This document shows, one piece after another, positions 13,060 through 36,437 of a DNA stretch of 64,000 bases. Source of the stretch: an uncultured Gemmatimonadales bacterium (GTDB taxonomy: Bacteria; Gemmatimonadota; Gemmatimonadetes; Longimicrobiales; RSA9). Within the stretch, counting starts at the first letter, position 1; every line of letters begins with the position of its first letter. The stretch is from positions 736,001 to 800,000 of the forward strand of contig CAWCRS010000007.1 in the NCBI GenBank assembly GCA_963798085.1. The letters run 5' to 3'. A program made the position numbers and the translations under genes. The notes below the pieces were generated by a model. The model did not search any database. It was given only the letters and a program-made list of their open reading frames with translations, and was not told where the DNA came from.

Positions 13060-13105
13060 GTCCGGCTCCAGGAAAGCGGCAGCGTGGGGCATGCGGCCCG
13101 ACACA

Positions 13106-13137: not shown

Positions 13138-13370
13138 CTAGTCGGCCGGTGCGCGACCCGCACACAGCCGCGGGATGGAAGCGGACGGACGCGGGCCGGA
13201 GGGAACGAAAACGGGGACGGCAGCACCGCCCCCGTTGCACCGCCGGAGTCTGCGTGGGCCGGTGAAGGGTGACCCAGCTACCGGGTGTAATCGGCCGCAG
13301 CGGCAGCCGCCCAATGGCGTTGCACTGCCTCGAAAGAGCGCTGCGGTTCTGCGTCGGCGCGCTTGCCGGA

Positions 13371-16176
13371 TCACTCCTGGCGCAGCGCGAGGACCGGGTC
13401 CAGTCGTGCGGCGCGCAGGGCCGGGAGCAGCGAGGCCAGACCCGCGACCAGCAGGAAGAGGATCGTGATCGCGCTGTACGTGAGCGGGTCGGTGGCGCTC
13501 ACACCCACCAGCAGGCTGCGCATGACACGCGTGAGTGCCACGGCCCCCAGCAGACCCACGCCGGTGCCCAGCAGACTCAGCGTCAGGCCCTGTCCGACAA
13601 TGAGCCGCAGGATGCTCGACTCGGGCGCGCCGAAGGCCATGCGCACGCCGATCTCCGAGGTGCGCTGCTTCACCACGTAGGCCAGCACGCCATACAGGCC
13701 AATGGCGGCCAGCACCAGCGCCAGCACGGCGAACGTGGCAATGAGCGTGAGCGCGAAGCGCGTGGGCGCCATGGCGAGATTCACCAGGTCCGTGAGCGGC
13801 GCGACATCGGCGATAGGCAGCAGCGGGTCGACTTCCCTGACCTGCTGTTTGGCCGCCTGCACGAGACGCAGCGGATCGCCTGTGGTGCGCACGATCCAGC
13901 GCAGGGCGCCGAAGCTGCCCGCGTAGCCCGGGGTGAAGTAGATGGCCTCCGGCCCTTCGCTGGTGAGCGAGCGCTGCAGCTGGTGCCGCACCACGCCAAT
14001 GATCTGTACGGGCACAGCCTCCGGCGTAGTGACGCGGATGAGGATCTGCTGGCCCACGGCGGATTGTCCGTGAAACGCGATCTTTGCCAGCTTCTCATCC
14101 ACCACCACGACCGCCGCCGCCGTCTGCTCATCCGCTTCCGTGAAGGTGCGTCCTTCCACCAGCGGCGTGCGCAGCGCCTCGAAATAGCCCGGCTTCACGG
14201 CGCGGTAGTCCGCCTGGTGGAAGGCCTGCGGATCGGTGGCTGCCTCGAGCGTGCCCCAGCGGCCATTGAAGTACTGGCCATCGAGCGGCAGCGGGTTGGC
14301 GGCGGTGACTGCCGTGACGCCGGGCAGGCCGGCCAGCCGGTCGTGCACCCGGGTGAAGAAGGCGGCGCGTACAGCGGGATCGCGATACCGCGGGCCCGCC
14401 GGCGCGGCGTTCAACGTGAGTACGCCCTGCGCATCGAAACCCGGGTCGACCCGCTGCAACGCCACGAACGTGCGCATCATGAGACCGGCGCCAATCAGCA
14501 GCACGAGCGAGAGCGCGACCTCAGCCACGATCACGCTGCTGCGCAGCAGGCGGTTGGCGGAGAGGCCGGGCGTGCGCCCGCCTTCGCGCAGCACACCCGC
14601 CACATCCGCCCGGGAAGCGCGCAGCGCGGGCGCCGCGCCGAACAGTGCTGCGCAGGCGAGCGCCGCTAACCCGGTGTATGCAAGTACCCAGCCGTCCAGG
14701 CCGATCGCGCCCACGCGCGGCAGCTGCTCCGGCTGCAGCACGCGCAGCAGCTTCACGCCGGCCAGCGCCAGCCCGATGCCCAGCAGGGAACCCGCAGCGC
14801 TGAGCAGCACGCTTTCCACGAGCATCTGCCGGATCAGGCGCCAGCGGCGCCCGCCCACCGCCGCGCGCACCGCCAGCTCGCGCTCCCGCGCGCTGGAACG
14901 CACCAGCAGGAGATTGGCCACGTTGGCGCACGCAATGAGCAGCACGAACACCACCGAGCCCATGAGCGCCCAGAGGATGGGCCGGACGGGGGCCACCAGG
15001 TCCTCGTGCATGGGAATCACATCCAGCGCCAGCCCCGCCGTTTCCTTGATGGTGAAACGCTGGCGCAGGTCGGCGGCAATGCGATCCATGTCCTGCTGCG
15101 CACGCGGCACGGTGGCGCCGGGCCGGAGCCGCCCGATCACGCGCAAGAACACGTTGTTACGGTTGGCGTTCACGTAGTCGATGCGAGCCGCCGTCCACAT
15201 GTCGACGTGCGACTGCATCCCGGCGGCTGCGGGCATGAGCAGCTCGAAGTCGGGCGGCGCCACGCCCACTACCTCGGCAGGACCGCTGCCCAGGTCGACG
15301 ATCCTGCCGATCACGTCGCTGCGCCCGCCAAAGCGCGAGCGCCAGAACCCATTGTCCAGGATCACCGCCGTGTTGAGCCGCGCCGGCGCAGACGCTGGGG
15401 CAGCGGCAGCGCCCTGGGTCGGCCGCGGCGGCACCACGCCGTCCGCGTCGTTGAAGGCGCGGCCCAGCACCGGGCGCACGCCCAGCACCGAGAAGAAGTT
15501 GGTGGTGACACCACCTGCGCGGATCTGTGCCGGCTCGCCGTCACTCGTCAGCGCGTCCGCGTACGTCCACGCACCCGCGAAATCCTGGAACTGCGTGGAC
15601 ATTTGCCGATAGTCCAGGAAGTCGGGGGGCGACGTGGGGAAGTACTTCACGCCCCGTCGAGTCAGCTCGGCCCACACCAGGGTCAGCTGCTGCGGATCCG
15701 CGTACGGCAGCGGCCGCAGCAGCACGGCGCGCACCACACTGAAGATGGCCGCGTTGGCGCCAATGCCCAGGCCGATGGTGAGCACGGCCGCAATCGTGAA
15801 ACCCGGCGCGCGCAGCAGCGAGCGCAGACCGTGTCGCACATCTCTCGCCAGCCCATTCATGATCATCATTCCGCGAAACGAGGATCCGCTTGCATCGTCC
15901 GCAAAGCGCGGGTGATGCCCCGATCTGCCCTGCCATCGCTCCACCACGACGCCGCGCAGCAGGTCCAGCAGCGTGCCCGCCCAGAGGACCGTCAGCGCAC
16001 GCACGCCGTTGCGCTCCATGGCATCCTGTGCGCGCTGCCCGAACACGTGCGTCATTCTCGCGGCCGTAGCGCTCGCGCAGCGCGGCCGGATACACGCGGA
16101 GCAGCATTGCGTACACGCGCTCCGAAAACCGCACCGCGCGCGTGCGACTGGGCATGCGACCCGGCCGTCCGCTCAT
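13371..16176 (-). CDS. ADOP-type duplicated orphan ABC permease, with a +1 frameshift near 16056
   Basis: N-terminal prefix LLRVYPAALRERYGRE(M) (ORF from 16176) joins MTHVF... (ORF 16055-13371) if one base of 'gagaatg' is removed; two MacB/FtsX halves. Confidence 0.85.
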
Positions 16177-16180
16177 TGCC

Positions 16181-16582
16181 TCACACCGCCCGCGCCCGGC
16201 CCGCGAGCAGCTTGCGCGACCTCGCCGTCGCCACTCTCGCCGCCAGCCGCGACGCCTCCGCTTCCGCTACCGTGCGACCGAGCGGCGTCAGCGCGTAGTA
16301 ACGCCGGCGCGCATCGTCGGCTTCATCCGGCCGCTCGTCCCGCTCCTCGATGAGTCCCTGGTCCACCATGCGGAAAATTGCGCGATACAACGTGCCCGCG
16401 TGCAGCGTGACCGCGCCATCCGTGCGCTCTTCAATGTCGCGCAGGATCGCGTAGCCATGGCGAGGCCCATCGGCCAGGCTGAGCAGCAGCTCGAACCCGG
16501 CTTCCGTCAGCGGCAGGAACGAATCAATGGGCGGCGTCGTCGCCTTCTTCGTAGCAGTGCGTGCGTTCTTTCTCGGTGTCAT
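16181..16582 (-). CDS. PadR-family regulator
   Basis: LLLSLADGPRHGYAILRDIEERT...GTLYRAI...RRRYYALTPLG; RBS ggag. Confidence 0.9.
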   Translation of the reverse strand: MTPRKNARTATKKATTPPIDSFLPLTEAGFELLLSLADGPRHGYAILRDIEERTDGAVTLHAGTLYRAIFRMVDQGLIEERDERPDEADDARRRYYALTPLGRTVAEAEASRLAARVATARSRKLLAGRARAV

Positions 16583-16599
16583 GGGCGCGTCTCCCGGGT

Positions 16600-16642
16600 C
16601 TATGTTCCCGGTACCTATACGCCCTGGGCACATAGTGGACAA
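16600..16642 (-). promoter_or_regulatory. Sigma70-type promoter of padR overlapped by a palindromic operator
   Basis: Minus strand TTGTCC-17 nt-TATAGG (16642-16614); imperfect inverted repeat ctatgttcccgg/ctgggcacatag (10 of 12 match) over 16600-16635. Confidence 0.6.
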
Positions 16643-16711: not shown

Positions 16712-17143
16712 TCAGGCTGCGGCGGGTTCCCGGTAGAGCCAGGCGCCCAGCATGCCGGCGACGATCAGCTCACCCAGCGCCCAGAAAAGCCCCACAGTGA
16801 GCGCGTGGATGGGGAACGCGCCCATGGCCAGGAAGTTGAGTGCGCCAAGCCCGCTCCAGAGCAGCCACGTGACGAGGGCCGCTGTGAAAGCGGTCTTGGG
16901 TCCCGGTCCGAAGCGCGGGCGGAAGGCGGCGTACAGCCAGACCACGAGGATGCCGATGGCGAAGCCCATGAGGAGATACAACGTCAAGGCGACGGTCATG
17001 TCGGGGTGCAGGTTGAGACGCTGCATGGCGGCGTCGAAGTCGGCATCGATGACGTAGCCGTTGAGGATGAACTCGCTGACGTTGATAAGCACGCCGGCCG
17101 CGATACCACCGAGCAGGACTCTCCCGACGTTCACGCGCGACAT
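16712..17143 (-). CDS. Hypothetical four-TM membrane protein
   Basis: Hydrophobic segments with motif YAAFRPRFGPGPKTA; RBS ggagg. Confidence 0.75.
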   Translation of the reverse strand: MSRVNVGRVLLGGIAAGVLINVSEFILNGYVIDADFDAAMQRLNLHPDMTVALTLYLLMGFAIGILVVWLYAAFRPRFGPGPKTAFTAALVTWLLWSGLGALNFLAMGAFPIHALTVGLFWALGELIVAGMLGAWLYREPAAA

Positions 17144-17250
17144 GTACACCCTCCGTCAGGTGGGGCGGCGCGGCCAGGGGGCGCACGTCGCCTTGGCTTG
17201 CCGACCGCGAAATTGGTGGGGTGCGCAAAGAAAGCGCGTAGCGGCGCCAC

Positions 17251-17345
17251 TGTCAACAACGGCGTCTATTGGCGGGTGCCTGCCAGTGCTCCAGCTGGTG
17301 TCTACAACGGCGTTAGAGGCGGGTGCCTGCCAGCGCTCCGGCGGT
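17251..17345 (+). repeat. Two-unit imperfect tandem repeat (48 and 47 nt)
   Basis: tgtcaacaacggcgtctattggcgggtgcctgccagtgctccagctgg / tgtctacaacggcgttagaggcgggtgcctgccagcgctccggcggt. Confidence 0.8.
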
Positions 17346-17419
17346 TCCGTGTCTGTGCGGCGAGCGGTGAAATCGGGCAGAATGCCCGATCGCGGTTGCG
17401 ATAGCGGACCGGGCGTGCG

Positions 17420-17443
17420 ACTGTCACAGCCGGCCGGCATCAT
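17420..17443 (+). promoter_or_regulatory. Candidate PafBC-type (RecA-NDp-like) promoter of the addB-addA-pafB-pafC operon
   Basis: ACTGTCAC-agccggccgg-CATCAT, i.e. TGTCAC-N10-CA-N3-T; a second copy occurs at 36414-36437 on the minus strand. Confidence 0.5.
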
Positions 17444-17526
17444 TACTCCCGGATCACGCATGTGGACCGTACGCGCCACTCCGGTCAGGGTCCACAGGCC
17501 GGCATCGGCAACCGCCCTCAAATGGC

Positions 17527-20500
17527 ATGGCTCGACTTCGTCTGGTTCTGGCAACGGACCCGTGGCTCCTTCTGGAAGACGCGGCGGATGCATTCCTTTC
17601 GCCTGCGCCCGCCTCGCCTGCAGTTCCCTTTCCTTCGCCACCCTTTCTGCTGGCGCTGCGTCAGGGCGGTCTGCGTGACGACCTGATCGCAATGGCGGCT
17701 GCACGCGGGGTGCGCGGCTGGTTCGATCCGCCTCTCTGTCTTTTTTCGCAGCTGCCTGAACTCCTGGGTGTGACGCGCGCCGCGTGCGGCGATTACGAGC
17801 GCCTGGTGCTGCTGGCGAGCGTGCTGCGCAGCGCTGCGCCGCGCGTGTTCTCGCGTCTGTCCCGACCGGACGCGTTCGTGGACGCGCTGGACCGTCTGTT
17901 TGGCGAGCTGGCAGGCGAGGGCGTGACGGCGGACGCGTTGCCGGGCGCACTCGCGCGCGCCGGGCGCGATGCGTTCGAGATCAACCGTGATGCCGACCTC
18001 GCCGCCGCGTACGACGCCTACCTTGCCGCGCTCGCTGCACAGGGTCTCCGTGATGATCGTGCGCGCTGGATCGACGCCGCTGCCGCGGTGCGCAACGATG
18101 CGCCGGGGCTGGCGCGACGACTCGGCCAGCGGCGCGAGCTGCGGCTCTTCGGACTGCAGGATCTGCGCGCCGGCTGGCGCACGCTGCTCGAGGCATTGCG
18201 CGCTTCGCCCGCGCTCGATGCCATCACCGTGCACACGTCCGCGCCGCTGCACACCGACGAAGCGCTGGATGCGGACGTGGTGACGGTGCTGGACGACACG
18301 TCGTCGCTTGCCCGCCGCTTGTTCACTGTTCGTGATGCACCATTTCAGGCGACGACGCCGCGTCTGGAAATCTTCTCCTCGCCGGATGCGGAGCGTGAGG
18401 CGGAGCAGGTGGCCGTGCGCGTGCGCGCGCTGCTCGATGGCGGCGCGCCGCCCGAGCGCATTGCCGTGGTGGCGCGCAGCGCGCGGCCCTGGGTGGACCT
18501 GGTGCTGGACGCGCTGGCCCACTGCGGTGTGTCTGCCACGGCCAGGCGAAGGCACAGCTTCGCCAGCATTCCGGTGGTGCGCTCGGTGCTCTCGCTGTTT
18601 GCCGTGGCCAGAGACGGCTGGCCTCGGCATGGCCTGGTCGAGCTGGCCGAGCAGCCCTACCTCGGCATCGATCTCGACGCGACCGTGCTCAACTACATCG
18701 GCTACCGGCGCCGCGTCGAAGGGCTGGATGACTGGATGGCCGCGCACGAGCGGCTGCTCGCGGAGGTGGAAGCGCGGGAGCGCAAGCATGCAGACGACGA
18801 TGCGGAGCCGGATCGCCGTCGCATGTCACTGCCTCCCGGGTGGCGCGTGCGCCGCGCGGTGGAAGCGTTCCGCCGCTTCGCCGGTTTCGCGCGGCCACTC
18901 GATTCGGCGCGGCCGCTGCACGCGTGGCTGGACTGGCTGCTCGCATTGCTCGGTGCCGATACGCGCGTGGAAGACGATGCGTCGTTGCCCGCGCAGGCGT
19001 GGGATGTGGCGCGCCACGTGTACGACGCGCCCGATGGTTGCGAGGATGTGGTGCGTCTGGACGCTGCCGGATTGCGTGGCGCACAGAGCGTCATTGCCGA
19101 GTGGCGTCGCGCGCTGGAGCGCTGGCGTGACGTGGCCCCACTGAGCGTCGCCGGGTTCGCGGGGCGGCTGCAGTCGATGCTCTCCGGTGATGCGGCGCTG
19201 TGGACGCGGGCGCGGCGCAGCGTGCAGGTGCTGGAGGGACTGGCCGCGGCGCACCGCGCCTTCGATCACGTCTTCCTTGTGGGCATGGCGGGCGGTCGCT
19301 TCCCGCTGCCCATGCCGCGCTCACCGATTCTCGGCGAGATCGAGCGAGCGCGGCTGGCGTCGGTCCTGCCGCTGGACACGAGCGAGCGGTGGGACACGCG
19401 CGAGCGCGAGCTGTTCCGTGTGCTCGTCGCGGGTGCGCGCGCCTCGCTGACCGTGAGCTGGCCACGCCTGGACGAGCGCGGCGGCGAGACCGTGCCATCC
19501 GCATTCCTGGAAGAGCTGCTCGATGTGGCCGGCGCCCTGCCGCTCGATCTTCCCACGCACGAGGTGCGCACGATGGGCGTGCCGCTGATCGCGGACGCGG
19601 CCGCGGTGCCGCTGGCGCTGCACGCGGCGACCATCGAGGGCGAGCGCGCGACCGGGCGGCTCTCGCCCTGGAACGGCCTGATCACAAACACGGCATTACG
19701 GGCGGCGCTGGGCGAGCGGCTGGGACCGGAATACGTGTGGAGTCCCACGCAGCTGGAGAGCTACGCGAAATGTCCGTGGGCCTGGTTTTCCGCCCGCCTG
19801 CTGCACCTGGAGAAGCTGTCGGATCCCGATGTCGACATCGATCCACGCGCCCGCGGCAGCCTTCTGCACGACGCGCTGCGGCGCTTCTTCGACAGCGCCC
19901 GCGAACGCTTCGGCCGGCCGGTGTTCCTGCTGCCCGGGGACCTCGATGCCTGGGCGCGCACACTGCTGCACGAATCGCTGGAAACGGCGCTCGCCGCTGT
20001 GGCCGATGAGGTGTGGCTCGGCCAGCCCGCGCTGCGCCTGACCAAGCGCGCCGAGCTGCGGCGCATGCTCGACCGCTTCCTCGAAGGTGAAGCCGAGTAC
20101 AACGAAAAGCTGCTCGATCGCCCGCACTGGACGTACACGCGCACGTTGCGCATGGCCGCGGCGGCGCACGAGCTGGCCTTCGATGAACTGCGCATCCGGG
20201 CAGGCGGCGAGATGCTCCGTCTGCGCGGCACCATCGATCGCGTGGATGTCAGCTGCGACGACCGGGTCGCGGCGGCCGACTGCGTGGCAGCGATCGACTA
20301 CAAGACGACGAAGTGGTCCACGCCCGGGTCAGGCGAGGGCCTGGCGTGGAGCGACGGTGTCGTGCTCCAGGTGCCACTCTATGCGGAAGCGCTGCTGCAG
20401 CTGCGTCCCGGCTCGCGCGTGGCGAGGGTCGCCTATCGCGCGATCCGCTCGCGCGACCTCGTGCACAAGCTCGATCTGCTCGAAGTCAAAGGCAGCAGGG

Positions 20501-20694
20501 GGCACCTCGAGCTGACGCGGAACACGGAGGGCGAGCAGAAGCTGGAGCGCGCGCTGGACGCGGTGGCGCAGCACGTACGGGCCGCGCGTGCCGGTGAGTT
20601 CCCCGCTGATCCGGCGCCCTCGTGCAAGTGTCCGACGTTCTGTCATGCGTGGGAGATCTGTCGCGTGCGCGGTGGGCCGCAGGCGAAATGGTGA
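17527..20694 (+). CDS. addB: AddB-like subunit: inactive helicase scaffold plus RecB-family PD-(D/E)xK nuclease with Fe-S cysteines
   Basis: ERIAVVAR, FDHVFLVGM, WSPTQLESYAKCP, RGSLLHDAL, LRGTIDRVD, IDYKT, LQVPLY, C-terminal CKCPTFCHAWEIC; no Walker A seen. Confidence 0.8.
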   Translation: MARLRLVLATDPWLLLEDAADAFLSPAPASPAVPFPSPPFLLALRQGGLRDDLIAMAAARGVRGWFDPPLCLFSQLPELLGVTRAACGDYERLVLLASVLRSAAPRVFSRLSRPDAFVDALDRLFGELAGEGVTADALPGALARAGRDAFEINRDADLAAAYDAYLAALAAQGLRDDRARWIDAAAAVRNDAPGLARRLGQRRELRLFGLQDLRAGWRTLLEALRASPALDAITVHTSAPLHTDEALDADVVTVLDDTSSLARRLFTVRDAPFQATTPRLEIFSSPDAEREAEQVAVRVRALLDGGAPPERIAVVARSARPWVDLVLDALAHCGVSATARRRHSFASIPVVRSVLSLFAVARDGWPRHGLVELAEQPYLGIDLDATVLNYIGYRRRVEGLDDWMAAHERLLAEVEARERKHADDDAEPDRRRMSLPPGWRVRRAVEAFRRFAGFARPLDSARPLHAWLDWLLALLGADTRVEDDASLPAQAWDVARHVYDAPDGCEDVVRLDAAGLRGAQSVIAEWRRALERWRDVAPLSVAGFAGRLQSMLSGDAALWTRARRSVQVLEGLAAAHRAFDHVFLVGMAGGRFPLPMPRSPILGEIERARLASVLPLDTSERWDTRERELFRVLVAGARASLTVSWPRLDERGGETVPSAFLEELLDVAGALPLDLPTHEVRTMGVPLIADAAAVPLALHAATIEGERATGRLSPWNGLITNTALRAALGERLGPEYVWSPTQLESYAKCPWAWFSARLLHLEKLSDPDVDIDPRARGSLLHDALRRFFDSARERFGRPVFLLPGDLDAWARTLLHESLETALAAVADEVWLGQPALRLTKRAELRRMLDRFLEGEAEYNEKLLDRPHWTYTRTLRMAAAAHELAFDELRIRAGGEMLRLRGTIDRVDVSCDDRVAAADCVAAIDYKTTKWSTPGSGEGLAWSDGVVLQVPLYAEALLQLRPGSRVARVAYRAIRSRDLVHKLDLLEVKGSRGHLELTRNTEGEQKLERALDAVAQHVRAARAGEFPADPAPSCKCPTFCHAWEICRVRGGPQAKW

Positions 20695-23600
20695 GCGGAA
20701 CGTCCGCGCGCACCGGTGCGGCTGGCGGGTTCCGGCCGCCCACGCCATCGCAATGGGAGGCGATCGCGGCGACCGACGACCACCTGCTGGTCGTCGCCGG
20801 CGCGGGCACTGGCAAGACGCACACGGTCGTCGGTCGCGTGCTCTATCTGCTGGGCGTACCGATCAACGAGCAGACGTACGCGCGGCCTGTCGGCCTGCCG
20901 CAGATCGCGGCCATCACCTACACGAAGGAAGCGGCACGCGACCTGAAGCAGCAGCTGCGCGACGATCTGCGCGCCGCGGGCCGGCGCGAGCTGGCCTGGC
21001 AGGTGGACCTCGCCCGTATCGGCACCATCCATTCGTTCTGCGCCGAGCTGCTGCGCGAGCATGCGCTGCGCGCGGGCGTGGCGCCGGCTGACACCGTACT
21101 GGAAGAGGGCGAAGCACTGGAGCTGGCCACACAAGCAGCGCGCGACGCGCTGGTCGCTGCGCTCGGGCAGGGCGGCATTGCCGGACTGGACGCACTGCTG
21201 GGCGACCGGCGTACCAGTGATATCGACCGCTGGGTGGTCGACCTGATGCGGAAGCGCGATCTGCTGCGCGCGCTGCACGACCGCTGGCGCGACGCCGACG
21301 TCGGCAGTGAAGCCGACGCGCCCACCACCGAGGAGCGCGCGCTGATTCTGCTGGCGAGCGCCGCAGCCGAGCGCTACGACCGCGTGCTGGCCGACAGCGG
21401 CCGCATCGACTACGACCACATGATCCACTGGACCCGCGACCTGCTGCACCGCGACGCGCACGTGCGGGCCGCTCTGCGGCAGCGGCTGCACACGCTGATC
21501 GTGGACGAATTCCAGGACGTGGACCCGATGCAGAAGGAGATCGCCTACGCCATCGGCGCCGTGGGCGAGGCCCGCGCGGACACGCCTCGCCTGATGCTCG
21601 TCGGCGATCCCAAACAGAGCATTTACAGATTCCGCGGCGCGGACGTCAGCTCGTGGAACAGCGTGCAGCGCGATTTCGAGGAGCAGGGCCTGGGCCGGGT
21701 GCTGCCGCTGCGCGAGAATTTCCGCAGCCTGCCACCCATTCTTGCCATGGTGGAAGCGTCGGTAGGCGCCGCCCTCGATCAGCCGATCGATGGCCAGGCA
21801 CTGCGTGACTACGAGGTGCCATTCCTGCCGGTTGCTGCACAGCGTGCGTCAGCGGAAGCGACCGCGGTCGAGTTCCTGCTGGTCCCGGCCAATGCGGCCG
21901 GCAAGAGCCGCCGGGCGGACGACGTACGCGTGGTCGAAGCCCAAGCGATCGCGGAGCGCATGCGGCAGCTGCACGCGGATCGCGTTCGTTTTTCCGACAT
22001 GGCGCTGCTCTTCGCCACGTGGACATCGGTGCAGATCTATCAGGATGCGCTGCGGCGCGTGGGCATTCCCTTCTACACGCTGCGTCGCGACGGCTTCCTC
22101 GACACCCGCGAAGTCCACGATCTGGTGCTGGCCCTGGAAGTCGTGCGCGACCCGACCGACGAGCGCGCGTTGTTCGGCTTCCTGCGCAGCCCGTTCATCG
22201 GTGTCAGCGACGAGACACTGCTGCGCGTGGCCGATCGCAAGCGCCGGCCTTCGTGGCGACACCTGTGCGACGTTGATGCCGACGCCGCCGGCGAGAGCGG
22301 CGCGATGGAAAGCGCGGAAATGGAGCGGCTTGCCTTCGCGCAGCAGCTGCTGGACCGCTACACGCGGTTGCGCGACCGGCTGTCCAGCGCGGAACTGCTC
22401 GACGCGCTGCTGCGCGAGACGGGCTTCCTTGCGCATCTCCAGCTGCGAGGCGAGGCGGGCAGTCAGGCGCTGGCCAACGTGCGGCAATTCATCGGACTGG
22501 CGAGGGCCACGCCCGACGTGAGTGTGGGCGATTTCATCCGCATCCTGCGCGAGCAGCGGGAGCGCGGCGATCGCGTGCCGGAAGCCATACTGTACGCCCG
22601 CGACGACGAGGTCGTCACAATCACGTCGATCCACGTGGCGAAGGGTCTGGAATGGCCGGTCGTGTTCTGGGCGGATCTGTCGCGCGGGCCAGTCACATTC
22701 TCCAGCAAACTCGTGGTTGGTCGCAGCGAAATACGACTGGGCGAGCCCGACATCGACGCGGATGACCAGCCGGATCCGCGCTGGGGCGCGCTGCGCATGA
22801 GCGTGATCGACGAGGAGTACGCAGAACACAAACGCCTGGCTTACGTGGCGGCTACGCGGGCGCGCGACCGCCTCATCCTGTGTGGCATACCGATGGGAGG
22901 CACCGGTAGCGGCAGGGACAAGCCGCCGAGCGACAGACGGCGCGAACCGATCGCGAAGCTGTTCCTGTCGCGTTTCCCGCAGCTGGCGAACGCGCGGTCC
23001 GGTGACCTGGTGGAATTCGCGGGCCGCGATACGGAAGGCGAAGCGCGTGCCCGGAGGCACGCGGCCCTCGTGCACGTGGCGACGCCATCCGAGCCGGCGC
23101 CGGCGTACCGGCCACCCAACCGCCTGTTTGGCCAGACCACGGAGGAAGCGCCGCAGCCCTGGCCCACGCTCGATCCGGCAGCCATCGAATTGCCGCTCGA
23201 ACCCGTCGCGGCCGCTGCGGGTCCGCCCCGCCATTCGGCCACCGAGTTCCTCACCTACACGCGCTGCCCTCGGCGGCACTGGTTCAAGTACGTGGTCGGC
23301 ATTCGTGAGCCGCCGCTGGCCGCTGCCGAGCGAGATGCGCTGATCTCGGCCGTGCAGCGCGGGCAGATCGTGCACGATGTGCTGGAGCGTTTGCGCGAGG
23401 AGGCGGACCTCGACAGCCTGCTCGAGGATGCCATCGGCCGCTGGGACGAGAACGCGCCAGCGCCCGAGTCGGACCGCGGGTCCGCGTATCGGGCGCACCT
23501 GCGGGACGAAGTCAGCCGGGTGGTCGAGCACCCTGACTACATTGAGTTAGCCAGCCGCCCGGGGGCGCGCCACGAGCTGCCCTTTCTGTACGTCGCCGCG

Positions 23601-24446
23601 GATGGCGTGGCGGGGCAGGGCAGCATCGACCTGGCGGTCCCGGACACGGACGCCGCCGGGGCGCCGGGCATGACGCTCCTCGATGTGAAGACCACGCAAT
23701 GCGACGCGGCGGGCGCGCGCCTGAAGGCAGAGCAGTACGCGCCGCAGCGCGACGTGTACGTGACTGCCGCGACGGCAATCGCGGGTCTGCCCGTGCACCG
23801 CTTTGCGTTCCAGTTCACGCGCGCCGCCGTGCAGCTCACGCAGGACATCGACGCGTCGGGCCGCGCCGCCGCCGCAGGGCGCTTCGCGGAAAGCGCGCGT
23901 CAGATTGCAGAAGAGCACGCGCCCTTGACGCGCTTTCCGCAGGAATGCCGCTTCTGCGGTTATCGCAAAGTGCGCCTGTGTCCCGGCGCGCGCTTCGATC
24001 CACCCGGCCTGGATGATCTGTTCGCACGCCTGGCGCGCGATCGCTTCCGTTCCGGCTTCAGCCTGCAGGCCAGGGAGCGCGCGTATCTGCAGACGCATGG
24101 CATCGACAGCGTGCTGGAGCAGGCGAGGCGTTTCGTGCAGCAGCGGCTGGCGCCCGCGTCGCCGGCGCGCGATGGCCGGCAGACGCCCTGGCGAGGGCAC
24201 CCCGTGTTCGTGGCGCAGCACGGAACCGCGACCTGCTGCCGCTCGTGCGTGGAGCGCTGGCACGGGATCAGTCGCGGCGTGGCGCTCACCACGGAACAGC
24301 AGGAGTACGTGCTGCGCGTCATCGAACGCTGGCTGCGCGCGCAGGCGGAGACATCGGCGGGGACTGCCGACGACTCCGCCACGGCAGGCGATGATGCCAC
24401 GCGCGGCAGACGAGCACGCGACGGCTCACAGCTCGAGCTGCTCTAG
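20688..24446 (+). CDS. addA: AddA-like UvrD/SF1 helicase-nuclease with C-terminal DUF4186-like domain
   Basis: AGAGTGKT, VDEFQD, VGDPKQSIYRFRGAD, ENFRS, SIHVAKGLEW, YVAATRARD; nuclease GSIDL..DVKT..QRDVY; CPRRHW...CRFC...C; tail GRQTPWRGHPVFVAQHGTATCCRSC. Start overlaps the addB stop. Confidence 0.85.
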   Translation: MVSGTSARTGAAGGFRPPTPSQWEAIAATDDHLLVVAGAGTGKTHTVVGRVLYLLGVPINEQTYARPVGLPQIAAITYTKEAARDLKQQLRDDLRAAGRRELAWQVDLARIGTIHSFCAELLREHALRAGVAPADTVLEEGEALELATQAARDALVAALGQGGIAGLDALLGDRRTSDIDRWVVDLMRKRDLLRALHDRWRDADVGSEADAPTTEERALILLASAAAERYDRVLADSGRIDYDHMIHWTRDLLHRDAHVRAALRQRLHTLIVDEFQDVDPMQKEIAYAIGAVGEARADTPRLMLVGDPKQSIYRFRGADVSSWNSVQRDFEEQGLGRVLPLRENFRSLPPILAMVEASVGAALDQPIDGQALRDYEVPFLPVAAQRASAEATAVEFLLVPANAAGKSRRADDVRVVEAQAIAERMRQLHADRVRFSDMALLFATWTSVQIYQDALRRVGIPFYTLRRDGFLDTREVHDLVLALEVVRDPTDERALFGFLRSPFIGVSDETLLRVADRKRRPSWRHLCDVDADAAGESGAMESAEMERLAFAQQLLDRYTRLRDRLSSAELLDALLRETGFLAHLQLRGEAGSQALANVRQFIGLARATPDVSVGDFIRILREQRERGDRVPEAILYARDDEVVTITSIHVAKGLEWPVVFWADLSRGPVTFSSKLVVGRSEIRLGEPDIDADDQPDPRWGALRMSVIDEEYAEHKRLAYVAATRARDRLILCGIPMGGTGSGRDKPPSDRRREPIAKLFLSRFPQLANARSGDLVEFAGRDTEGEARARRHAALVHVATPSEPAPAYRPPNRLFGQTTEEAPQPWPTLDPAAIELPLEPVAAAAGPPRHSATEFLTYTRCPRRHWFKYVVGIREPPLAAAERDALISAVQRGQIVHDVLERLREEADLDSLLEDAIGRWDENAPAPESDRGSAYRAHLRDEVSRVVEHPDYIELASRPGARHELPFLYVAADGVAGQGSIDLAVPDTDAAGAPGMTLLDVKTTQCDAAGARLKAEQYAPQRDVYVTAATAIAGLPVHRFAFQFTRAAVQLTQDIDASGRAAAAGRFAESARQIAEEHAPLTRFPQECRFCGYRKVRLCPGARFDPPGLDDLFARLARDRFRSGFSLQARERAYLQTHGIDSVLEQARRFVQQRLAPASPARDGRQTPWRGHPVFVAQHGTATCCRSCVERWHGISRGVALTTEQQEYVLRVIERWLRAQAETSAGTADDSATAGDDATRGRRARDGSQLELL

Positions 24447-24459
24447 TCCGGAGGCAGAC

Positions 24460-25572
24460 ATGGCAATCACGAAACTGCAGCGCTGGCTCGATCTGGTCGC
24501 ATTTCTCGTGAGCCGGCGCATGCCCGCCACATTCGAGGAGATCATTGAGCACGTGCCGGCGTACAGCGGCGCAGGCTCCGGCGACATGCGCGCCGGCGAG
24601 TCGGTGCGGCGCATGTTCGAGCGTGATAAGGACGAGTTGCGCGCAATGGGCATACCGCTGCAGACAGTGCCGTTCAGCATCGGCTTCGGCAGTGAGGCGA
24701 TCGAAGGCTACGCCATCGACAATCGCGACTTCTACCTGCCGTGGCTGCGTCTGGTCGAGCAGCTCTCGCCCGGAGGTCAGTACGCGGATCGCAACCGTAC
24801 AGGCGAGGTCGAGATCACACCGGCGGAGGCGCCGCTCGTCCTGGAAGCGCTGCGCCGCGTGTCGCAGCTGCCGGCGTCACCGCTGGCCAGAGAGGCGAGG
24901 TCGGCGTTCCGCAAGCTGGCTTTCGATCTCGATCCGGATGCGTTCGCCGCCGACTCGCCGGTGCTGTTCGTCGAGCGACCGGAAGCAGAGGAGCTGGTCG
25001 AACGCCTGCGCATGCTTTCCGATGCGCTGCTCACGCGCAAGCGTGTGGCCTTCACCTATCACGGCATTTACAGAGGCGAAGACACCGATCGCAGCGTGCA
25101 GCCGTACGGCCTGCTGTTCCAGGAAGGCCACTGGTACCTGGTGGCGCACGACGCCGAGCGCGAGGCGGTGCGCGTGTTCCGCGTCGGCCGCATGGACGCA
25201 CTGCGCGTGAATCCGCGCGCTCCACACACGCCCGACTACGAGATACCGGCCGGGTTCAAGCTGGATCCATGGGTGGGCCGCAAGGCATGGGAGCTGGGCG
25301 ATCTCGAGGAGAAGCCGATCGAAGCCGATGTGCGCTTCCGCTTCCCGCGCTCGCTCTGGGCGGAGCGCAACGGACACGGCGCGCTGGTACGCGAGCTGGA
25401 GGGCGGCGACACGGTGCGACGATTCCGTGTCTATCAGGTAGGCGCGTTCCTGCGCTGGCTGCTGGGACTCGGTGGTGAAGCCGATGTGCTCGAGCCGGCC
25501 GAACTGGCGCAGCAGTTCCGCGAGCTGGCTGCGGATGTGGCCCGCATTCACGGTGGAGGCGATGATGCCTGA
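24460..25572 (+). CDS. pafB: PafB-like HTH-WYL-WCX transcriptional regulator
   Basis: RRMFERDKDELRAMGIPL (PafB-type wHTH), VQPYGL, GHWYLVAHD, RVFRVGRM, VLEPAEL; RBS ggagg. Confidence 0.85.
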   Translation: MAITKLQRWLDLVAFLVSRRMPATFEEIIEHVPAYSGAGSGDMRAGESVRRMFERDKDELRAMGIPLQTVPFSIGFGSEAIEGYAIDNRDFYLPWLRLVEQLSPGGQYADRNRTGEVEITPAEAPLVLEALRRVSQLPASPLAREARSAFRKLAFDLDPDAFAADSPVLFVERPEAEELVERLRMLSDALLTRKRVAFTYHGIYRGEDTDRSVQPYGLLFQEGHWYLVAHDAEREAVRVFRVGRMDALRVNPRAPHTPDYEIPAGFKLDPWVGRKAWELGDLEEKPIEADVRFRFPRSLWAERNGHGALVRELEGGDTVRRFRVYQVGAFLRWLLGLGGEADVLEPAELAQQFRELAADVARIHGGGDDA

Positions 25573-26728
25573 GCCGGCACAGGTTCGCCTCGAACGCCTG
25601 CTGTATCTGCTGCCCGCCGCGGCGCGCGACGGCGGCGCCCGCCTCGATGAGCTGGCGCGCGCGCTGGACGCATCCCCAGCCGATCTGCTGCGCGACATCC
25701 AGGAAGCCACGGCCCGCGCTTTCTACTTGCCGCCCGGCCAGGCCGATTCCATCCAGATCACCATCGAAAAGGATCGCGTGCAGGTCTTTGCCGGGCGCCA
25801 GTTCCAGCGGCCTGTCCGGCTCTCGCAGCGGGAAGCGCTCGCGCTCGGCCTCGGCCTGCGCATCATGGCCGCCGAGCGCGAAGACGCGGCCGGTCGCAAC
25901 ACACTGTTGGCGCTGGCCTCGCGCATGGAGCAGTCGCTGGCCGTGCCCATGGTGCGCGAGGCGCCACGCGCCATGCCCGGCGCCCCCGTCCCGGCCGAAG
26001 AAGCCGCGCCGTACGGCGCAGCCGAAGATCTGGCACCGCCGCCGTCTTTGCAGGCGCCGCGCTTTCCATTTTTCGCCCGTCCCTCGCCGCCGGCCCGCGA
26101 GCGCCAGTCCGCAGCGGCAGGTGGCATCGGCACGCCGCCGCCCATTGTGCTGCACATCGAGCAGGAGCGCGGTCCGGTCAAGGTGGAGCTGGGTGAGGAC
26201 GCGTTCCGCGGCATCATGGCCGACGGCGTGCGCGAGCACCGCCGGGTAACACTGAGTTATCTGAGGCCCGGCGCCCGTGCGCCGGAACCGCGTACGGTCG
26301 AACCGCTGCGCCTGGTCTACGCCAACGGTCGCTGGTACCTTGCGGCGCAACCGGTACCGGGAGACGAGCCGCGCATCTACCGCCTCGACCGCGTGCTCGG
26401 CGCGCGTCTCGAGGCCGAACATTTCGAGCCCGGCCCGATCGACATCAGCAGCTTCATTGATGAGGCCGGCCGCGCGTACAGCGCGCGCGACGCGGTGGTC
26501 GCACAGGTTCGCTACTCGCCTCGCGTCGCCCGCTGGGTCAGCGAGCGCACGCGCCAGGCGGCCTCGCCCGACGGCAGCATCACCGTCGAGCACAGCGTGG
26601 CTGACCCGGACTGGCTGGCGCGCCACGTGCTGCAGTACGGCGCCGACGCCGAAGTTGTCGGGCCGCCGTCACTCCGCGAACACGTCGCATCCATTGCACG
26701 GTCACTCGCATCTCACCGCGGAGATTGA
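25565..26728 (+). CDS. pafC: PafC-like HTH-WYL-WCX transcriptional regulator
   Basis: RLERLLYLLP, RPVRLSQREA, VEPLRL, GRWYL, RIYRLDRV, VLQYGADAEVVGPPSLR; ATGCCTGA overlap with pafB. Confidence 0.85.
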   Translation: MPEPAQVRLERLLYLLPAAARDGGARLDELARALDASPADLLRDIQEATARAFYLPPGQADSIQITIEKDRVQVFAGRQFQRPVRLSQREALALGLGLRIMAAEREDAAGRNTLLALASRMEQSLAVPMVREAPRAMPGAPVPAEEAAPYGAAEDLAPPPSLQAPRFPFFARPSPPARERQSAAAGGIGTPPPIVLHIEQERGPVKVELGEDAFRGIMADGVREHRRVTLSYLRPGARAPEPRTVEPLRLVYANGRWYLAAQPVPGDEPRIYRLDRVLGARLEAEHFEPGPIDISSFIDEAGRAYSARDAVVAQVRYSPRVARWVSERTRQAASPDGSITVEHSVADPDWLARHVLQYGADAEVVGPPSLREHVASIARSLASHRGD

Positions 26729-26783
26729 GAAGGGCTCGGAGAACGGAGTTCTTGTTTTGTTGCTTACCGCGGAGAACGGGGAG
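26712..26783 (+). repeat. 72-bp REP-like repeat (two ACCGCGGAG cores), left copy
   Basis: Ungapped match of about 48/72 nt to the reverse complement of 35035-35106 (counted by hand). Confidence 0.7.
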
Positions 26784-26792
26784 TTGAAATGC

Positions 26793-26891
26793 GAAGGCCA
26801 ACCTCCTGATCGGTCGCGGCGTAGCGGCAGGCGCTCGCCAGAAGAGTTGACCGTGACGGACCCGGAGGTCCCGAAACCAGGAGGTTGGCCG
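26793..26891 (+). ncRNA. IS110 left-end structured leader (bridge-RNA-like region)
   Basis: Perfect 13-bp inverted repeat ggccaacctcctg(26796-26808)/caggaggttggcc(26878-26890) occluding the transposase RBS; inner stem gtcgcgg/ccgtgac; directly upstream of the IS110 ATG. Confidence 0.65.
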
Positions 26892-27320
26892 ATGTTGATC
26901 ATCAATTTAACGATTGGGCTGGATGTGGGCGATCGGAAGAGCGTGACGTGCGAAGTGGATGGCGCGGGGTGCGTGGTGAAGCGGGCGACGGTGGCGACGA
27001 CGGAGGTGGGGTTGCGGGCGTATCTTGGCGAGCGTGCGCCGTGTCGTGTGGTGATGGAAGCGGGGACGCATTGGCCCTGGGTGTCACTGGAGTTGAGCGC
27101 GCTGGGGCATGCGGTGGTGGTGGCGAATCCGAGCGCGGTGTGTGGGCGGGCAGCGACGCAAGAAGCGCATTGACGCGCTGGATGCGGAGTATCTGCGAGG
27201 CAGGGCCGTGTGGCCGTGGCGTTGTTGCACCCGATCTGCCATCGGGGGCCGGAAGCGCAGGCGCATTCTGGGGGTGGTACGCACGCGGGATCGCTGGTGC
27301 GGGCACGCACGAAGCAGCAT
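26892..27320 (+). pseudogene. Truncated, frameshifted IS110-family transposase (N-terminal DEDD/RuvC part)
   Basis: TIGLDVGDRKS, VVMEAGTHWPWVS, VVVANP, then KKRIDALDAEYL and LLHPICHRGPEAQA...LVRARTK in other frames; C-terminal domain absent. Confidence 0.85.
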
Positions 27321-27842: not shown

Positions 27843-28526
27843 ATGGACAGGCATTACGTGCTGGTGGTGTCCGGCTTGCGTGACCAGGTGACCGAGGCGG
27901 AAATGTGGGTGGACGTAATGAACCGAGCCGGAAAAAGGTATCGGCGGATCACGTGGGCCGGGGTGCGCGACCTAAGTAGGCGTCGGAACGGCTTCGAAGA
28001 CGGGGATGTGATCTACATTCTGACGCACGGTAATTACAATGCCGAGACAGATATTGCGACCGGCACCATCGAGATGGACGGCGATAAGGGACAGGCAGAC
28101 AAGCTCGCGAAAAAGATCGCGGCCTGTCAGGTGCCAAAGGACGCAGCGATCAAGCTGAAGATCTTCGCCTGTTTGTCCGCCGACGAGCCGGAGCTCAACT
28201 CGAAGAGCTATGCCCAGCAGCTCCGGGTCGAGCTATGCAAACGCGGCTACCATCGAATGATCGTGTACGGCTACAGAGGTGAGACGAAGGCCCTGGCCTG
28301 GGGACAGCACAAGGCAGCCGGCGTGGCGTTGCATTCACCCATGGGAACCGAGCAGCCGGAGCCGGACGACACGCTCGAGACGTGGCGGTATCACGCGAGC
28401 CACCCGGACAATCGAACCGAACACCGGTGCGGCAATGACCGTCAATGCCCGCACACAGGCGACAAGATGGGCGGCCTCAGCAAAGCACCGCGGCGACAAA
28501 AGTCCGTGGGGTTCAATCCTTACTGA
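27843..28526 (+). CDS. Putative C80/caspase-hemoglobinase-fold cysteine protease
   Basis: IYILTHG (His62), IKLKIFACLSA (Cys110), then SYAQQL...VYGYRGE, matching the CPD/C80 layout. Confidence 0.6.
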   Translation: MDRHYVLVVSGLRDQVTEAEMWVDVMNRAGKRYRRITWAGVRDLSRRRNGFEDGDVIYILTHGNYNAETDIATGTIEMDGDKGQADKLAKKIAACQVPKDAAIKLKIFACLSADEPELNSKSYAQQLRVELCKRGYHRMIVYGYRGETKALAWGQHKAAGVALHSPMGTEQPEPDDTLETWRYHASHPDNRTEHRCGNDRQCPHTGDKMGGLSKAPRRQKSVGFNPY

Positions 28527-28967
28527 AGTGATCGCATTGGAGCCGCTCGTTGGCATGAATTCGTCCGACCATTGGCAACGACGACGACCTCGCGCACGAG
28601 GTGGCGGCTCCCGGTTCAGAGTGCCAAGGCACCCACGTGCGCTTGGCGAGGGCGCGGCCGCAACGGGAAGCGGTCGCCGACGCGGTGGACCGAGGTCTCG
28701 GTCTACCTCACGACGGGCGGTAACCTGGTGCTGCACGTCGGCGGCTACTCGAGCATCTAGGGCGAGCGAAGCCGCAACGCGGCGGCCGTCCATGATAATG
28801 CGGCGAGCGCGCTGATCTGGCTGCTCGAGCAGTCTGGCGGCGAGCTCGGCCGCGTGTCGAAGGATGCTTGACAGCAGGCCTGCTCCATCTATCCACCGCT
28901 CGGACAAGAAGCAACGGAGCGAGTACAATGAGTCTGGCGCGCTTGCGATCCAAAGGGAGCCCAACCA

Positions 28968-30641
28968 GTGACCATTCCGCCTGAAGAAGCGTTCAAGGAA
29001 CGACTGGGCTTGCACGAGCTACTTGGCTTTTGGCCATCCTGGGAATTCGTCGACGCTCGCTTGGCACGGTTACCACTCGGATTTGTGCTCGACATCCTCG
29101 GCCGCATTAGCATGCTCCTGTATCACAGACCACAACAAGCAAATGCAGGAGTGCTAACGGCGTTGTTTGGCGACGGCAGTCCAGTTCTGAAGGCCCTCCA
29201 CAAAGCAGGGCCGGATTCCGTTACGGTATTCGACGAGATTCTGACAATCAACGCCACTAAGCGTGCGCTAATGGTGTGCCCCCGCGGCCGACCGCTTGAG
29301 TTGGACGCGCCGAAGATCTTAGGTACGGCTCTCCTGGCAGTGGGTGGGCTTATTGACAGGGAATTTGTAGTCGCGCCAGCGATCGCAAGGAAACCGGCTG
29401 GTCGAAGCAGGAGCAATGCACATCTCTTGGCCAACGGCTTGTTCAATCGACCGAGCGTGGAAAGACACGAGGAGGCGCGCGCCTACTTGCTTTATCTGCG
29501 GGACCACGACGACCCGCGACACAGTCCATTTTACATGAACCTCCCGCAGCGCCTGCAGAACATTTCCGGACTGGATTCGATCACTTTTCTGTCGATCCTG
29601 CACTCGGTTTCGTCCTTGTGGCGAGGACGGCAGCAAATCGCTCTAATTAACACGGGGTCGGTTTTCGATAGATCTCACTTTCAGCGAAGTCTCTCGCTAT
29701 CGGATGATGACCTTCAACAGTACCTAGGCGTAGTCAGTCAGTCGCTGGACAGTGCAGTTGCAACGGCACACGCCCTCCATGGTGCGGCTGAATGGTCGAC
29801 ATATGATCGCATTTATCTAGCGAAGCATCCCGTGTTAGATGATGGACAACGGATCTATTGTCCCTCGGTGAAGTTGTTGTCAGAAAAACTCACTACTGGT
29901 CTTCATCACGTATTCTTGGCACCGGACAACGGTCTAACAGAGGACCAGCGGAAGCAATTTCTCGATTTCATGGGCGCTGTTTTCGAGAAGTATGTTGTCG
30001 ATGCTCTACCGGGCGCCTTCCAAGGAACCGTTATGATGGAAAGGGATCTTCAAATCAGACAGTCGGATCGCGTGTGCGATGCCGCGATTCTGAGTGGCTC
30101 CGGTCTGATTCTTCTTGAGGTAAAAGCTGGGTTGCTTCCGGCTGATGCGGTGGCTGGGCGCTCCTGGGATGTCTTTCGGCGAAAGGCGACGCAGACGGTT
30201 GTCGAAGCGGCCGCTCAGATATCGGCTACAGTTGACTCCGTGCAATCGGGCGCATTGGAAGGACGCGGCATCGCTCGGGACGTAGCTCCTATCATTCCAC
30301 TTGTCGTTACGTTAGAGCACTTCCCGATTACGCCGGCAATGTATGATGAACTCGACGCCGATATTCGGGGTCAAGGAATGCTCAGGCAAACAAACGTATT
30401 GCCATGGCAGCTCATGAATGTCTCGGACCTTGAGGTTTGCGAGGGGTGGCGAGCAATCAATGAAGATCCCGTGCAGGTGGTGCTGAAGCGAGCGTTGCAT
30501 AGGACCGGTCCGAAATACCCATTCTCTAATTATCGCTGGGCTCACCATCCGGAAGTCGGTGAAGCATTTAGTCCGCGACTGAACGTCGCGTGGAATGAAA
30601 TCGTCAGACTCATTTCCGGGTACAATTCCGGGAGGCCATAA
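28968..30641 (+). CDS. Hypothetical 557-aa protein with C-terminal PD-(D/E)xK (NERD-like) nuclease
   Basis: MGAVFEKYV...VCDAAI...ILLEVKAG; long uninterrupted ORF in DNA visibly more AT-rich than its flanks. Confidence 0.7.
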   Translation: MTIPPEEAFKERLGLHELLGFWPSWEFVDARLARLPLGFVLDILGRISMLLYHRPQQANAGVLTALFGDGSPVLKALHKAGPDSVTVFDEILTINATKRALMVCPRGRPLELDAPKILGTALLAVGGLIDREFVVAPAIARKPAGRSRSNAHLLANGLFNRPSVERHEEARAYLLYLRDHDDPRHSPFYMNLPQRLQNISGLDSITFLSILHSVSSLWRGRQQIALINTGSVFDRSHFQRSLSLSDDDLQQYLGVVSQSLDSAVATAHALHGAAEWSTYDRIYLAKHPVLDDGQRIYCPSVKLLSEKLTTGLHHVFLAPDNGLTEDQRKQFLDFMGAVFEKYVVDALPGAFQGTVMMERDLQIRQSDRVCDAAILSGSGLILLEVKAGLLPADAVAGRSWDVFRRKATQTVVEAAAQISATVDSVQSGALEGRGIARDVAPIIPLVVTLEHFPITPAMYDELDADIRGQGMLRQTNVLPWQLMNVSDLEVCEGWRAINEDPVQVVLKRALHRTGPKYPFSNYRWAHHPEVGEAFSPRLNVAWNEIVRLISGYNSGRP

Positions 30642-30876
30642 GAGAGCAGACAATTGAGCGGTCGGCCTGACGGTGGCTGGAAGATCCCGACTACGCGGGA
30701 TCGCTCCATCCACGGCGATAGGAACACTTTGATTTCCGCCAAGCGAATTCTGCTATGGCTCCTACGGCCGCGGGCATCATTGTCCGAGTTGCCTCTTCTG
30801 ATCGCTCGACAACAAGGGTCGGTGTCGGCGTGGCCCCCCGCGGATCCGACAACGTGGCCGATCTGCTGCAGAGTGT

Positions 30877-36413: not shown

Positions 36414-36437
36414 AAGATGGCAGGGGGGTGTGACAGT
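36414..36437 (-). promoter_or_regulatory. Second candidate PafBC-type promoter motif, upstream of the vWA gene
   Basis: Minus strand ACTGTCAC-acccccctgc-CATCTT (TGTCAC-N10-CA-N3-T), ending 38 nt before the vWA ATG. Confidence 0.5.

Follow-up and report, generated by a model that had tools for sequence, protein, structure and literature searches.

Why should two WYL-domain transcription factors of the PafB and PafC types stand in one operon with a DNA-end resection machine in a phylum distant from the Actinobacteria, and what would they control there? The question is raised by a 64,000-nucleotide (nt) stretch of DNA from an uncultured Gemmatimonadales bacterium (assembly GCA_963798085.1, contig CAWCRS010000007.1, positions 736,001 to 800,000 of the forward strand), called here the window and numbered from its first letter, in which an addB-like gene, an addA-like gene, pafB and pafC follow one another. 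These genes probably form a PafBC regulon operon of the Gemmatimonadota, in which a sigma adaptor that senses single-stranded DNA (ssDNA) would switch on its own expression together with that of the resection machine and of accessory genes. The features of the operon are the following, with protein lengths in amino acids (aa) and wHTH standing for winged helix-turn-helix:

17420..17443, plus strand: predicted PafBC-type promoter, with TGTC at -28 to -25 (17422-17425), a 12-nt spacer, CATCAT as the -10 element (17438-17443) and a predicted +1 at about 17450
17527-20694, plus strand: addB-like gene, open frame of 1055 aa
20688-24446, plus strand: addA-like gene, open frame of 1252 aa
24460-25572, plus strand: pafB (WYL1), open frame of 370 aa, wHTH-WYL-WCX, PafB orthologue
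25562-26728, plus strand: pafC (WYL2), ATG at 25562 or 25565, 387 aa from 25565, HTH_PafC-WYL-WCX, PafC orthologue
26730..26763, plus strand: terminator-like hairpin with a T-rich tail, immediately 3' of pafC

The two add genes overlap by 7 nt, addA and pafB are separated by a 13-nt gap, and pafB and pafC overlap by 8-11 nt. The position of the hairpin alone is suggestive, because the number of such sites, 5, compares with 3.7 in shuffled sequence. An earlier note on this DNA had described the four co-oriented open reading frames with these overlaps and the 13-nt gap, all of which hold at the coordinates listed, as well as a PafB-type (RMFERDKDELR..GIP) and a PafC-type (RLERLL) N-terminus, both of which are present; the promoter before addB and the DUF4186 tail of AddA are additions to it.

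Upstream of addB the sequence reads CTGTCACAG-CCGGCCGG-CATCAT, and the motif TGTC-N12-TAnnnT, with its -26 plus -10 geometry, lies 77 nt 5' of the addB start. This motif, referred to below as the box, was learned by unseeded expectation maximisation from the regions upstream of the pafBC operons of 58 relatives, with the window held out; the full upstream set comprises 59 of 61 regions (60 loci and the window), two without a called pafB being omitted. In about 60% of the regions the procedure returns cTGTCacacccc...gcTA..tT, which matches the published mycobacterial consensus, tTGTCRgtg-8 nt-TannnT, with identical spacing (PMC5656591; here and below, published statements are taken from the accessible parts of the papers cited). 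With the matrix learned without the window, the addB site scores 21.2 bits and ranks third in the host genome, where 0-1 sites reach 21 bits when the spacer is altered as a control; the site that ranks second precedes a 74-aa frame of no assigned nature. The spacing itself is selective, as TGTC-N12-[TC]AnnnT is found in 27 of the 59 upstream regions and in 0-4 of them at other spacers. Sites of at least 15 bits number 75 in the 60 loci, none of them inside genes, against 3-13 with altered spacers, a comparison that is partly circular because the training regions are included; the corresponding figures are 63 against 3-6 in 68 loci outside the training set, and 19 against 2-3 in 35 metagenome loci among the matches listed. 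An ATG stands at offset 30-31, the predicted +1, in 35 of 223 unique sites, and at any other single offset in no more than 8. No canonical -35/-10 promoter was found in 17000-27200, and (C/T)TGTCA was rejected as a canonical -35 element, since 11 nt separate it from the -10. Computationally, then, the promoter has a GTC at -26 and a -10 element with no -35.

Both regulators resemble the proteins known to act at such promoters. Pfam assigns WYL and WCX domains to PafB, and HTH_PafC (51 bits, cut-off 32), WYL and WCX to PafC, whose top matches in the PDB are 6SJ9 and 7P5X_AX. Aligned to Mycobacterium smegmatis PafB (7P5X_AY), the PafB of the window retains the equivalents of K5, R8, E42, R46, R50, K52, R56 and Y76, residues that in the cryo-electron microscopy complex are reported to read GTC and the backbone (PMC8635444). 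Its recognition helix is nearly identical to that of the mycobacterial activator, and of its helix-3 arginines R55 is invariant across relatives and R51 is kept in at least 90% of them. Both WYL arginines, which in mycobacterial PafBC are reported to bind ssDNA (PMC11804915), are present as well, within RVFRVGRM in PafB and RIYRLDRV in PafC. In a tree of 143 rows (quick search, with branch support from the Shimodaira-Hasegawa-like approximate likelihood ratio test, SH-aLRT, alone), the first genes of the Gemmatimonadota pairs come together in a single clade (100), nested in a group with actinobacterial PafB (90); their second genes do likewise (98), nested in a group with PafC (91). The branching within the PafB clade mirrors that within the PafC clade, and single WYL proteins from Myxococcota lie outside both. 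Pfam, the PDB alignments and the tree therefore agree with the earlier note that the pair is of true PafB and PafC types; of the HMM and phylogenetic comparison that it had called for, the part concerning PafB and PafC came out in its favour, the rows of the tree not including DriD, BrxR or CapW. Its Gemmatimonadota host is borne out by the named homologues of the operon proteins, which belong to Gemmatimonadota/Longimicrobiales.

Complex prediction for PafB and PafC gave 0.59 against 0.00 for the best control, with contacts that agree in at least 57% and a partner predicted local distance difference test score (pLDDT) of at least 61. In calibration, passes went to 116 of the 157 solved pairs and to 2 of the 215 mismatched ones; among these passes, 18 solved pairs and both mismatches scored 0.60 or less. 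The result is a weak pass, because both mismatches passed in this low range and likeness to the solved PafBC may explain it, and it lends weak support to a PafB-PafC heterodimer.

WYL proteins also include repressors, and the pair could act as BrxR and CapW do, occupying the promoter until ssDNA binding releases it. A site before the regulator's own operon and before defence operons is what has been reported for WYL repressors (PMC11662680, PMC9122601), but the site here is non-palindromic, its GTC stands at a fixed 12 nt from the -10 with no -35, and two different subunits fall in the PafB and PafC clades, the first of them with a recognition helix like that of an activator. We consider repression extremely unlikely, and activation in the manner of PafBC is the reading retained.

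If the box is a PafBC promoter, it should accompany PafBC beyond this operon. The linkage survey covered 122 loci, namely wide regions of 60 genomes and 62 non-duplicate named loci, of which 67 are fully flanked (at least 7 kb upstream and at least 5 kb downstream of pafBC). A PafC match directly follows PafB in 117 of the 122; in L060, L076, L077 and L082 PafBC is a single frame of 700-720 aa, like a natural Arthrobacter fusion. An uncharacterised family of 360-395 aa with a PUA-like N-terminus (for example L064:13427-14575), for which no named family was matched, stands in 20 of the 122 loci, often coupled to pafB or pafC. A resection machine lies within the retrieved flanks of 37 of the 122 loci and of 21 of the 67 fully flanked ones, and the AddA or RecB proteins beside pafBC fall in five clades, RecBCD and four AddAB types, one of which is the type that the host carries on another contig (C9). 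The exact order addB-addA-pafB-pafC is found in 6 of the 67 fully flanked loci and is absent from all three pafBC-bearing relatives of the same family. The operon with its DUF4186 fusion may recur elsewhere, as hinted by two WYL1-like and two AddA-like metagenome proteins whose contigs have the same two lengths (26,057 and 178,074).

Among 300 other genomes, 22 carry the addB type of the window, and pafBC is present in 15 of these. A box of at least 14 bits lies no more than 700 nt upstream of this addB in 11 of those 15, against 1 of the 7 genomes without pafBC. At resection operons that are not linked to pafBC, being remote from it or placed on a different contig, the box is present in 9 of 16 cases in pafBC genomes and in 1 of 14 in genomes without it (one region, G178, was dropped for want of an addB start); by type, the unlinked boxes are 5 of 6 for the type of the window, 2 of 4 for the C9 type, 0 of 1 for the host's own C9 pair, 2 of 3 for recC and 0 of 2 for another type. 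Several lie at -30 to -33, which is the leaderless position, and the chance of a box is well under 1% per region, judging from 77 sites of at least 13 bits in 12.5 million positions. As the box precedes unlinked resection operons and the shared order is rare, it is the regulatory tie that is conserved, not the gene order.

In the host genome itself (an assembly of 6.2 Mb, 90% complete), pafB and pafC are the only WYL genes, no RecC was found, and a second, unlinked addB-addA pair lies on contig C9, with 24-31% identity to the operon pair. The operon is thus an extra, second addBA there. No second AddAB-type pair was found in 22 of 22 relatives with the addB type of the window by a search that misses RecBCD, so that in those relatives this type looks like the housekeeping resection enzyme. 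These results also settle what the earlier note had said of the locus as a whole. Its functional tie between PafBC and a resection machine gains from the PafBC-type promoter before addB, and the search that it proposed for another recBCD or addAB turned up the C9 pair. Its synteny survey divides, the exact gene order proving not to be conserved and the box conserved. Its description of the operon as a self-contained module does not stand, because the order is rare, the second addBA could make ssDNA, and the box also precedes unlinked genes.

The same survey bears on the view that these genes are neighbours by accident: pafBC would have landed beside mobile genes together with a promoter of its own, and addBA would be read through without functional coupling. 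Such a history would account for the roughly 70% of fully flanked pafBC loci that have no resection genes nearby, and for the lack of the window's order in the same-family relatives. It would not account for a box before addB or recC at a distance from pafBC or on another contig, often in an exactly leaderless position, nor for the recruitment of five separate resection clades, and we hold it to be very unlikely.

Genome by genome, the strict pattern goes with PafB: it turns up in 37 of the 86 genomes whose PafB match is strong, in 3 of 9 with a weak one (a group that includes one unpublished genome, G055) and in 13 of 205 with none, which speaks for a PafBC regulon as proposed. That regulon also has evidence to contend with. 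Since the genomes are related, the co-occurrence counts are not independent. Several other points weigh on the same side. About 40% of pafBC operons have no box before them, nor does addB in 4 of the 15 pafBC genomes, and 7 of the 16 unlinked resection operons lack it, the host's own second addB among them. Both boxes of the window have C, not T, at -12, as do 48 of the 223 sites. Genome-wide, the simple pattern shows no enrichment in the host (14 sites against 6-14), and a large regulon in that genome was rejected on these counts. The tree unites the Gemmatimonadota with the actinobacterial clades at moderate support (SH-aLRT 90-91, from a quick search) and holds no DriD, BrxR or CapW. In PafC, D62, which contacts sigma region 4, is replaced by Q, and D or E stands there in 1 of 13 aligned relatives; the PafB wing residue W70 is F here and is missing in several relatives. 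Finally, no RbpA was found in the host genome.

What else the box precedes begins with a second site in the window:

36414..36437, minus strand: second predicted PafBC-type promoter, 25.7 bits, the strongest site of the genome, 62 nt from the site start to the vWA start codon
35103..36375, minus strand: vWA-domain gene (Pfam VWA), split over two frames near 35650-35700, by a real change or an assembly error

This gene is 64-68% identical to the vWA genes of relatives, where the family is a recurrent neighbour of pafBC and is preceded by a box at 8 loci in set 1 and at 7 in set 2. In two close loci (L033, L177) it directly faces pafC, which suggests that the 8 kb between pafC and vWA here, holding an IS630-like transposase, may be a later insertion. 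Other recurrent targets are pafBC itself, a DUF2779 nuclease-like gene, ARPP-1, TM0106-like helicases, and Ig-like and PEGA proteins. A box before recA is seen in 2 of 30 pafBC genomes and not in the host, where it is also absent before uvrA, ruvB, recN, recQ, pcrA, mfd, recF, mutS and dnaE. In the host, a direct repeat CCGAAR-N5-CCGAAR, a candidate LexA box, stands upstream of recA, in two places upstream of lexA, and next to a uvrC-like gene (C7:1216888, C7:1102903, C7:1102929, C7:1201934). This CGAA-N7-CGAA-type repeat stands in 4 of the 59 pafBC upstream regions and before recA in 4 of 30 relatives, and because the latter number is so small the candidate remains a lead; as no such repeat precedes addB, LexA control of the operon was rejected.

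Sporadic targets in relatives are HmaA, a DrmD-like gene, a DruE/DrmA-like helicase and Cas4-Cas1 of type I-G. They have given rise to the thought that the regulon is mainly an anti-phage and anti-plasmid alarm, in which invader ssDNA would call up defence, and the extra AddAB would degrade foreign linear DNA or supply CRISPR spacers. DdaA provides a precedent (PMC12392091), the host already has another addBA, recA is excluded from the regulon, and pafBC is patchy, with WYL1 homologues in 96 of 301 phylum genomes and variable neighbours. The sporadic occurrence of the defence targets speaks against an alarm of this kind, as does the finding that the 22 relatives make do with one AddAB-type pair (RecBCD being missed by the search). 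The weak 14.4-bit box before the host's cas7g is a further point for it, though this site and the Ku site of 12.4 bits are both within the genome-wide chance range. PADLOC gave generic UvrD and WYL matches for the four genes and no specific system model, and the operon was rejected as a known defence system on that ground. Carriage on plasmids or phages was likewise rejected, since plasmids and phages yielded distant WYL proteins and no close PafB homologue, and viral contigs yielded no relative among 32 pattern matches. A regulon devoted mainly to defence is, on balance, unlikely. The host's type I-G CRISPR-Cas locus itself (G000, C7:190000-208400, L428) comprises cas7g, cas8g, cas4-cas1, cas2 and a long array broken by an insertion-sequence-like gene; the weak PafBC-type site lies 76 nt before cas7g, which is apparently split over frames.

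What the analysis shows are the genes, their orthology, the motif with its position, and the co-occurrence; for the PafBC regulon, we infer heterodimer formation, ssDNA sensing, activation, damage induction and feedback as follows. By binding the WYL domains, ssDNA would activate the PafB-PafC heterodimer; the HTH of PafB would read GTC at -26, PafC would bridge to sigma, and the housekeeping RNA polymerase would start at promoters with a -10 but without a -35, a mechanism termed sigma adaptation. One such promoter would drive addB-addA-pafB-pafC from a start near 17450. In this way, ssDNA arising at breaks, at stalled forks or from foreign DNA would induce the resection helicase-nuclease together with its sensor, in a positive feedback, and breaks would be amplified into a stronger signal. 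Resection would add ligand and need not be its sole source, because mycobacterial PafBC is reported to need no free ssDNA end (PMC11804915) and to respond to fork perturbation (PMC8682763). Across the phylum, the most recurrent targets would be pafBC itself, the vWA gene and whichever resection machine a genome holds, of the AddAB types or RecBCD, followed by varying nuclease and defence genes, recA being mostly excluded.

The machine that would be induced has the build of an AddAB. AddB-like has a C-terminal RecB-family nuclease (Pfam PDDEXK_1) with residues D904, D924-Y-K926, Q948 and Y952 and iron-sulfur (Fe-S)-type cysteines, all invariant in the family, and no Walker A was seen in its N-terminus. 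Four-cysteine sets bind Fe-S clusters in AddB. A PDB search with the single sequence gave no match, and the family profile matched Bacillus subtilis AddB (3U44_B, E 1e-32) and not AdnA. AddA-like carries UvrD-helicase, UvrD_C and PDDEXK_1 domains and a C-terminal DUF4186 (about 24012-24335); its superfamily 1 (SF1) motifs and nuclease are intact, it has a four-cysteine Fe-S-type set of its own (C860, C1087, C1090, C1098), and its top PDB match is B. subtilis AddA (3U44_A, E 1e-45; AdnAB, 6PPR, 1e-22). A UvrD-type motor and a nuclease in AddA, an inactive helicase and an Fe-S-type nuclease in AddB, and adjacent genes are the features expected of AddAB. The NCBIfam equivalog models (addA_Gpos, addB_Gpos, addA_alphas, addB_alphas) stay below their cut-offs (228 against 708 bits, 35 against 904 bits), and by sequence the pair appears to be a divergent AddAB subfamily. 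Unlike the host's C9 AddA, the operon AddA has no long insertion in the N-terminal half of the helicase. The DUF4186 fusion is found in the top 10 of the 120 listed AddA homologues, the window protein included; the predicted model of this domain has a pLDDT of 58, and an Atlas search gave DUF4186 clusters alone.

The G+C content of the operon is similar to that of its flanks, and the 28-34 kb part of the window is lower. Within the low-G+C region (27843-32024) lie a 227-aa gene with a faint Peptidase_C80 match, a 557-aa gene with no match and the IS630-like transposase. Just after the pafC terminator, a truncated frame (26894-27173) has no Pfam match at E 0.001; it presumably resembles the N-terminus of an IS110 transposase. 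Pairs of a PadR regulator and a large ABC-permease gene are repeated on both sides (9905-16642 and 36457-39512). Elsewhere in the host genome (G000, C5:189593-193300), 22 tRNA genes are clustered in less than 4 kb.

The descriptions of sigma adaptation in the literature covered all concern actinobacterial PafBC, and the degree to which the PafBC system is conserved is raised as a question in a review (PMC7617703). A direct test of the portability of the mechanism is offered by this operon, with its matching regulator and promoter, from a distant phylum and a host in which neither Pup ligase nor RbpA was found. The promoter repeatedly couples the sensor to resection machines and to itself with recA mostly excluded, which points to a division of labour unlike that of mycobacteria, and the implied feedback loop could be tested in vitro with few purified proteins. 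More tentatively, and possible rather than probable in our estimate, PafBC may be an older switch, not specific to Actinobacteria, that licenses end resection; it would be a portable, self-amplifying cassette whose box is acquired by resection and defence promoters, and the double Fe-S AddA with DUF4186 would be a new resection subtype. If so, four AddAB clades or RecBCD, and Hma, DISARM-like and type I-G CRISPR systems, would acquire the box; ssDNA from resection would boost sensor, nuclease and immunity jointly, with Cas4-Cas1 spacer capture possibly timed to resection; and DUF4186 would gain its first functional lead.

Compared with known systems, the resection pair shares with B. subtilis AddAB (3U44) the addB-addA order, a single SF1 motor in AddA, RecB-family nucleases in both subunits and the Fe-S cysteines of AddB, and differs from it in the four-cysteine set and DUF4186 tail of AddA and in an AddB without N-terminal Walker A. 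Mycobacterial AdnAB (6PPR) is likewise a heterodimeric helicase-nuclease with two nucleases and under PafBC control, which is predicted here; AddA matches AddAB better (1e-45 against 1e-22), and the AddB profile matches AddB and not AdnA. DdaA of Moraxellaceae and DriD of Caulobacter are also WYL activators of damage genes, and DdaA of defence genes too, but they are reported as homodimers on the palindromes CGWCA-N5-TGWCG and CGAC-N7-GTCG (PMC12392091), whereas a heterodimer on a -26/-10 promoter is predicted here. BrxR and CapW, which are not in the tree, act as a homodimer on an inverted repeat in front of a defence operon; the operon has a heterologous pair and a non-palindromic site.

Outside Actinobacteria, class A WYL proteins are reported in many phyla, PafBC pairs not being assigned in the accessible part of that census (PMC6789036), and no study of a PafBC regulon was found in the literature covered, supplements and subscription papers lying outside its scope and the census possibly listing these proteins. 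The tandem WYL pair MXAN_1359/1360 of Myxococcus xanthus has been called PafB/PafC homologues and reported as LexA-dependent, without being studied further and with no promoter or regulon given in the accessible text (PMC12288472). In a Myxococcota sample, box-like sites of 13-19 bits lie near tandem WYL pairs (L278, L280, L296, L275), suggesting that the PafBC-type promoter may exist in that phylum as well.

With actinobacterial PafBC (7P5X, 9FND, 6SJ9; PMC8635444, PMC11804915) the operon shares the following features: tandem pafB-pafC, sometimes fused, the wHTH-WYL-WCX architecture, the DNA-reading and ssDNA-binding arginines, and a promoter of the RecA-NDp (-26 element) type, TGTC-N12-TAnnnT. 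Resection machines are among the targets in both; mycobacterial PafBC is reported to control RecBCD, AdnAB and recA (PMC8223512, PMC7617703). Here, in contrast, pafBC would be co-transcribed with addBA or recCBD, is patchily distributed, rarely has recA as a target, has a small regulon in the host against about 150 genes, and does not keep PafC D62; the box precedes pafBC, whereas mycobacterial pafBC is described as not induced in the accessible parts of two papers (PMC7617703, PMC8223512). Two contextual features, the Pup-proteasome locus and control of recA and core repair genes, are lacking, and no RbpA was found. Nor was a Pup ligase found in the whole host genome at its 90% completeness, which extends what the earlier note had said of the window; of 151 phylum genomes, 5 carry a gene of the Pup-ligase family (G003, G006, G009, G015 and G018), and these belong to two families that lie outside the host's class. 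By sequence, the pair is best taken as a PafBC orthologue and the Pup locus as actinobacterial context, not mechanism, which suggests that the sigma adaptation of PafBC works outside Actinobacteria.

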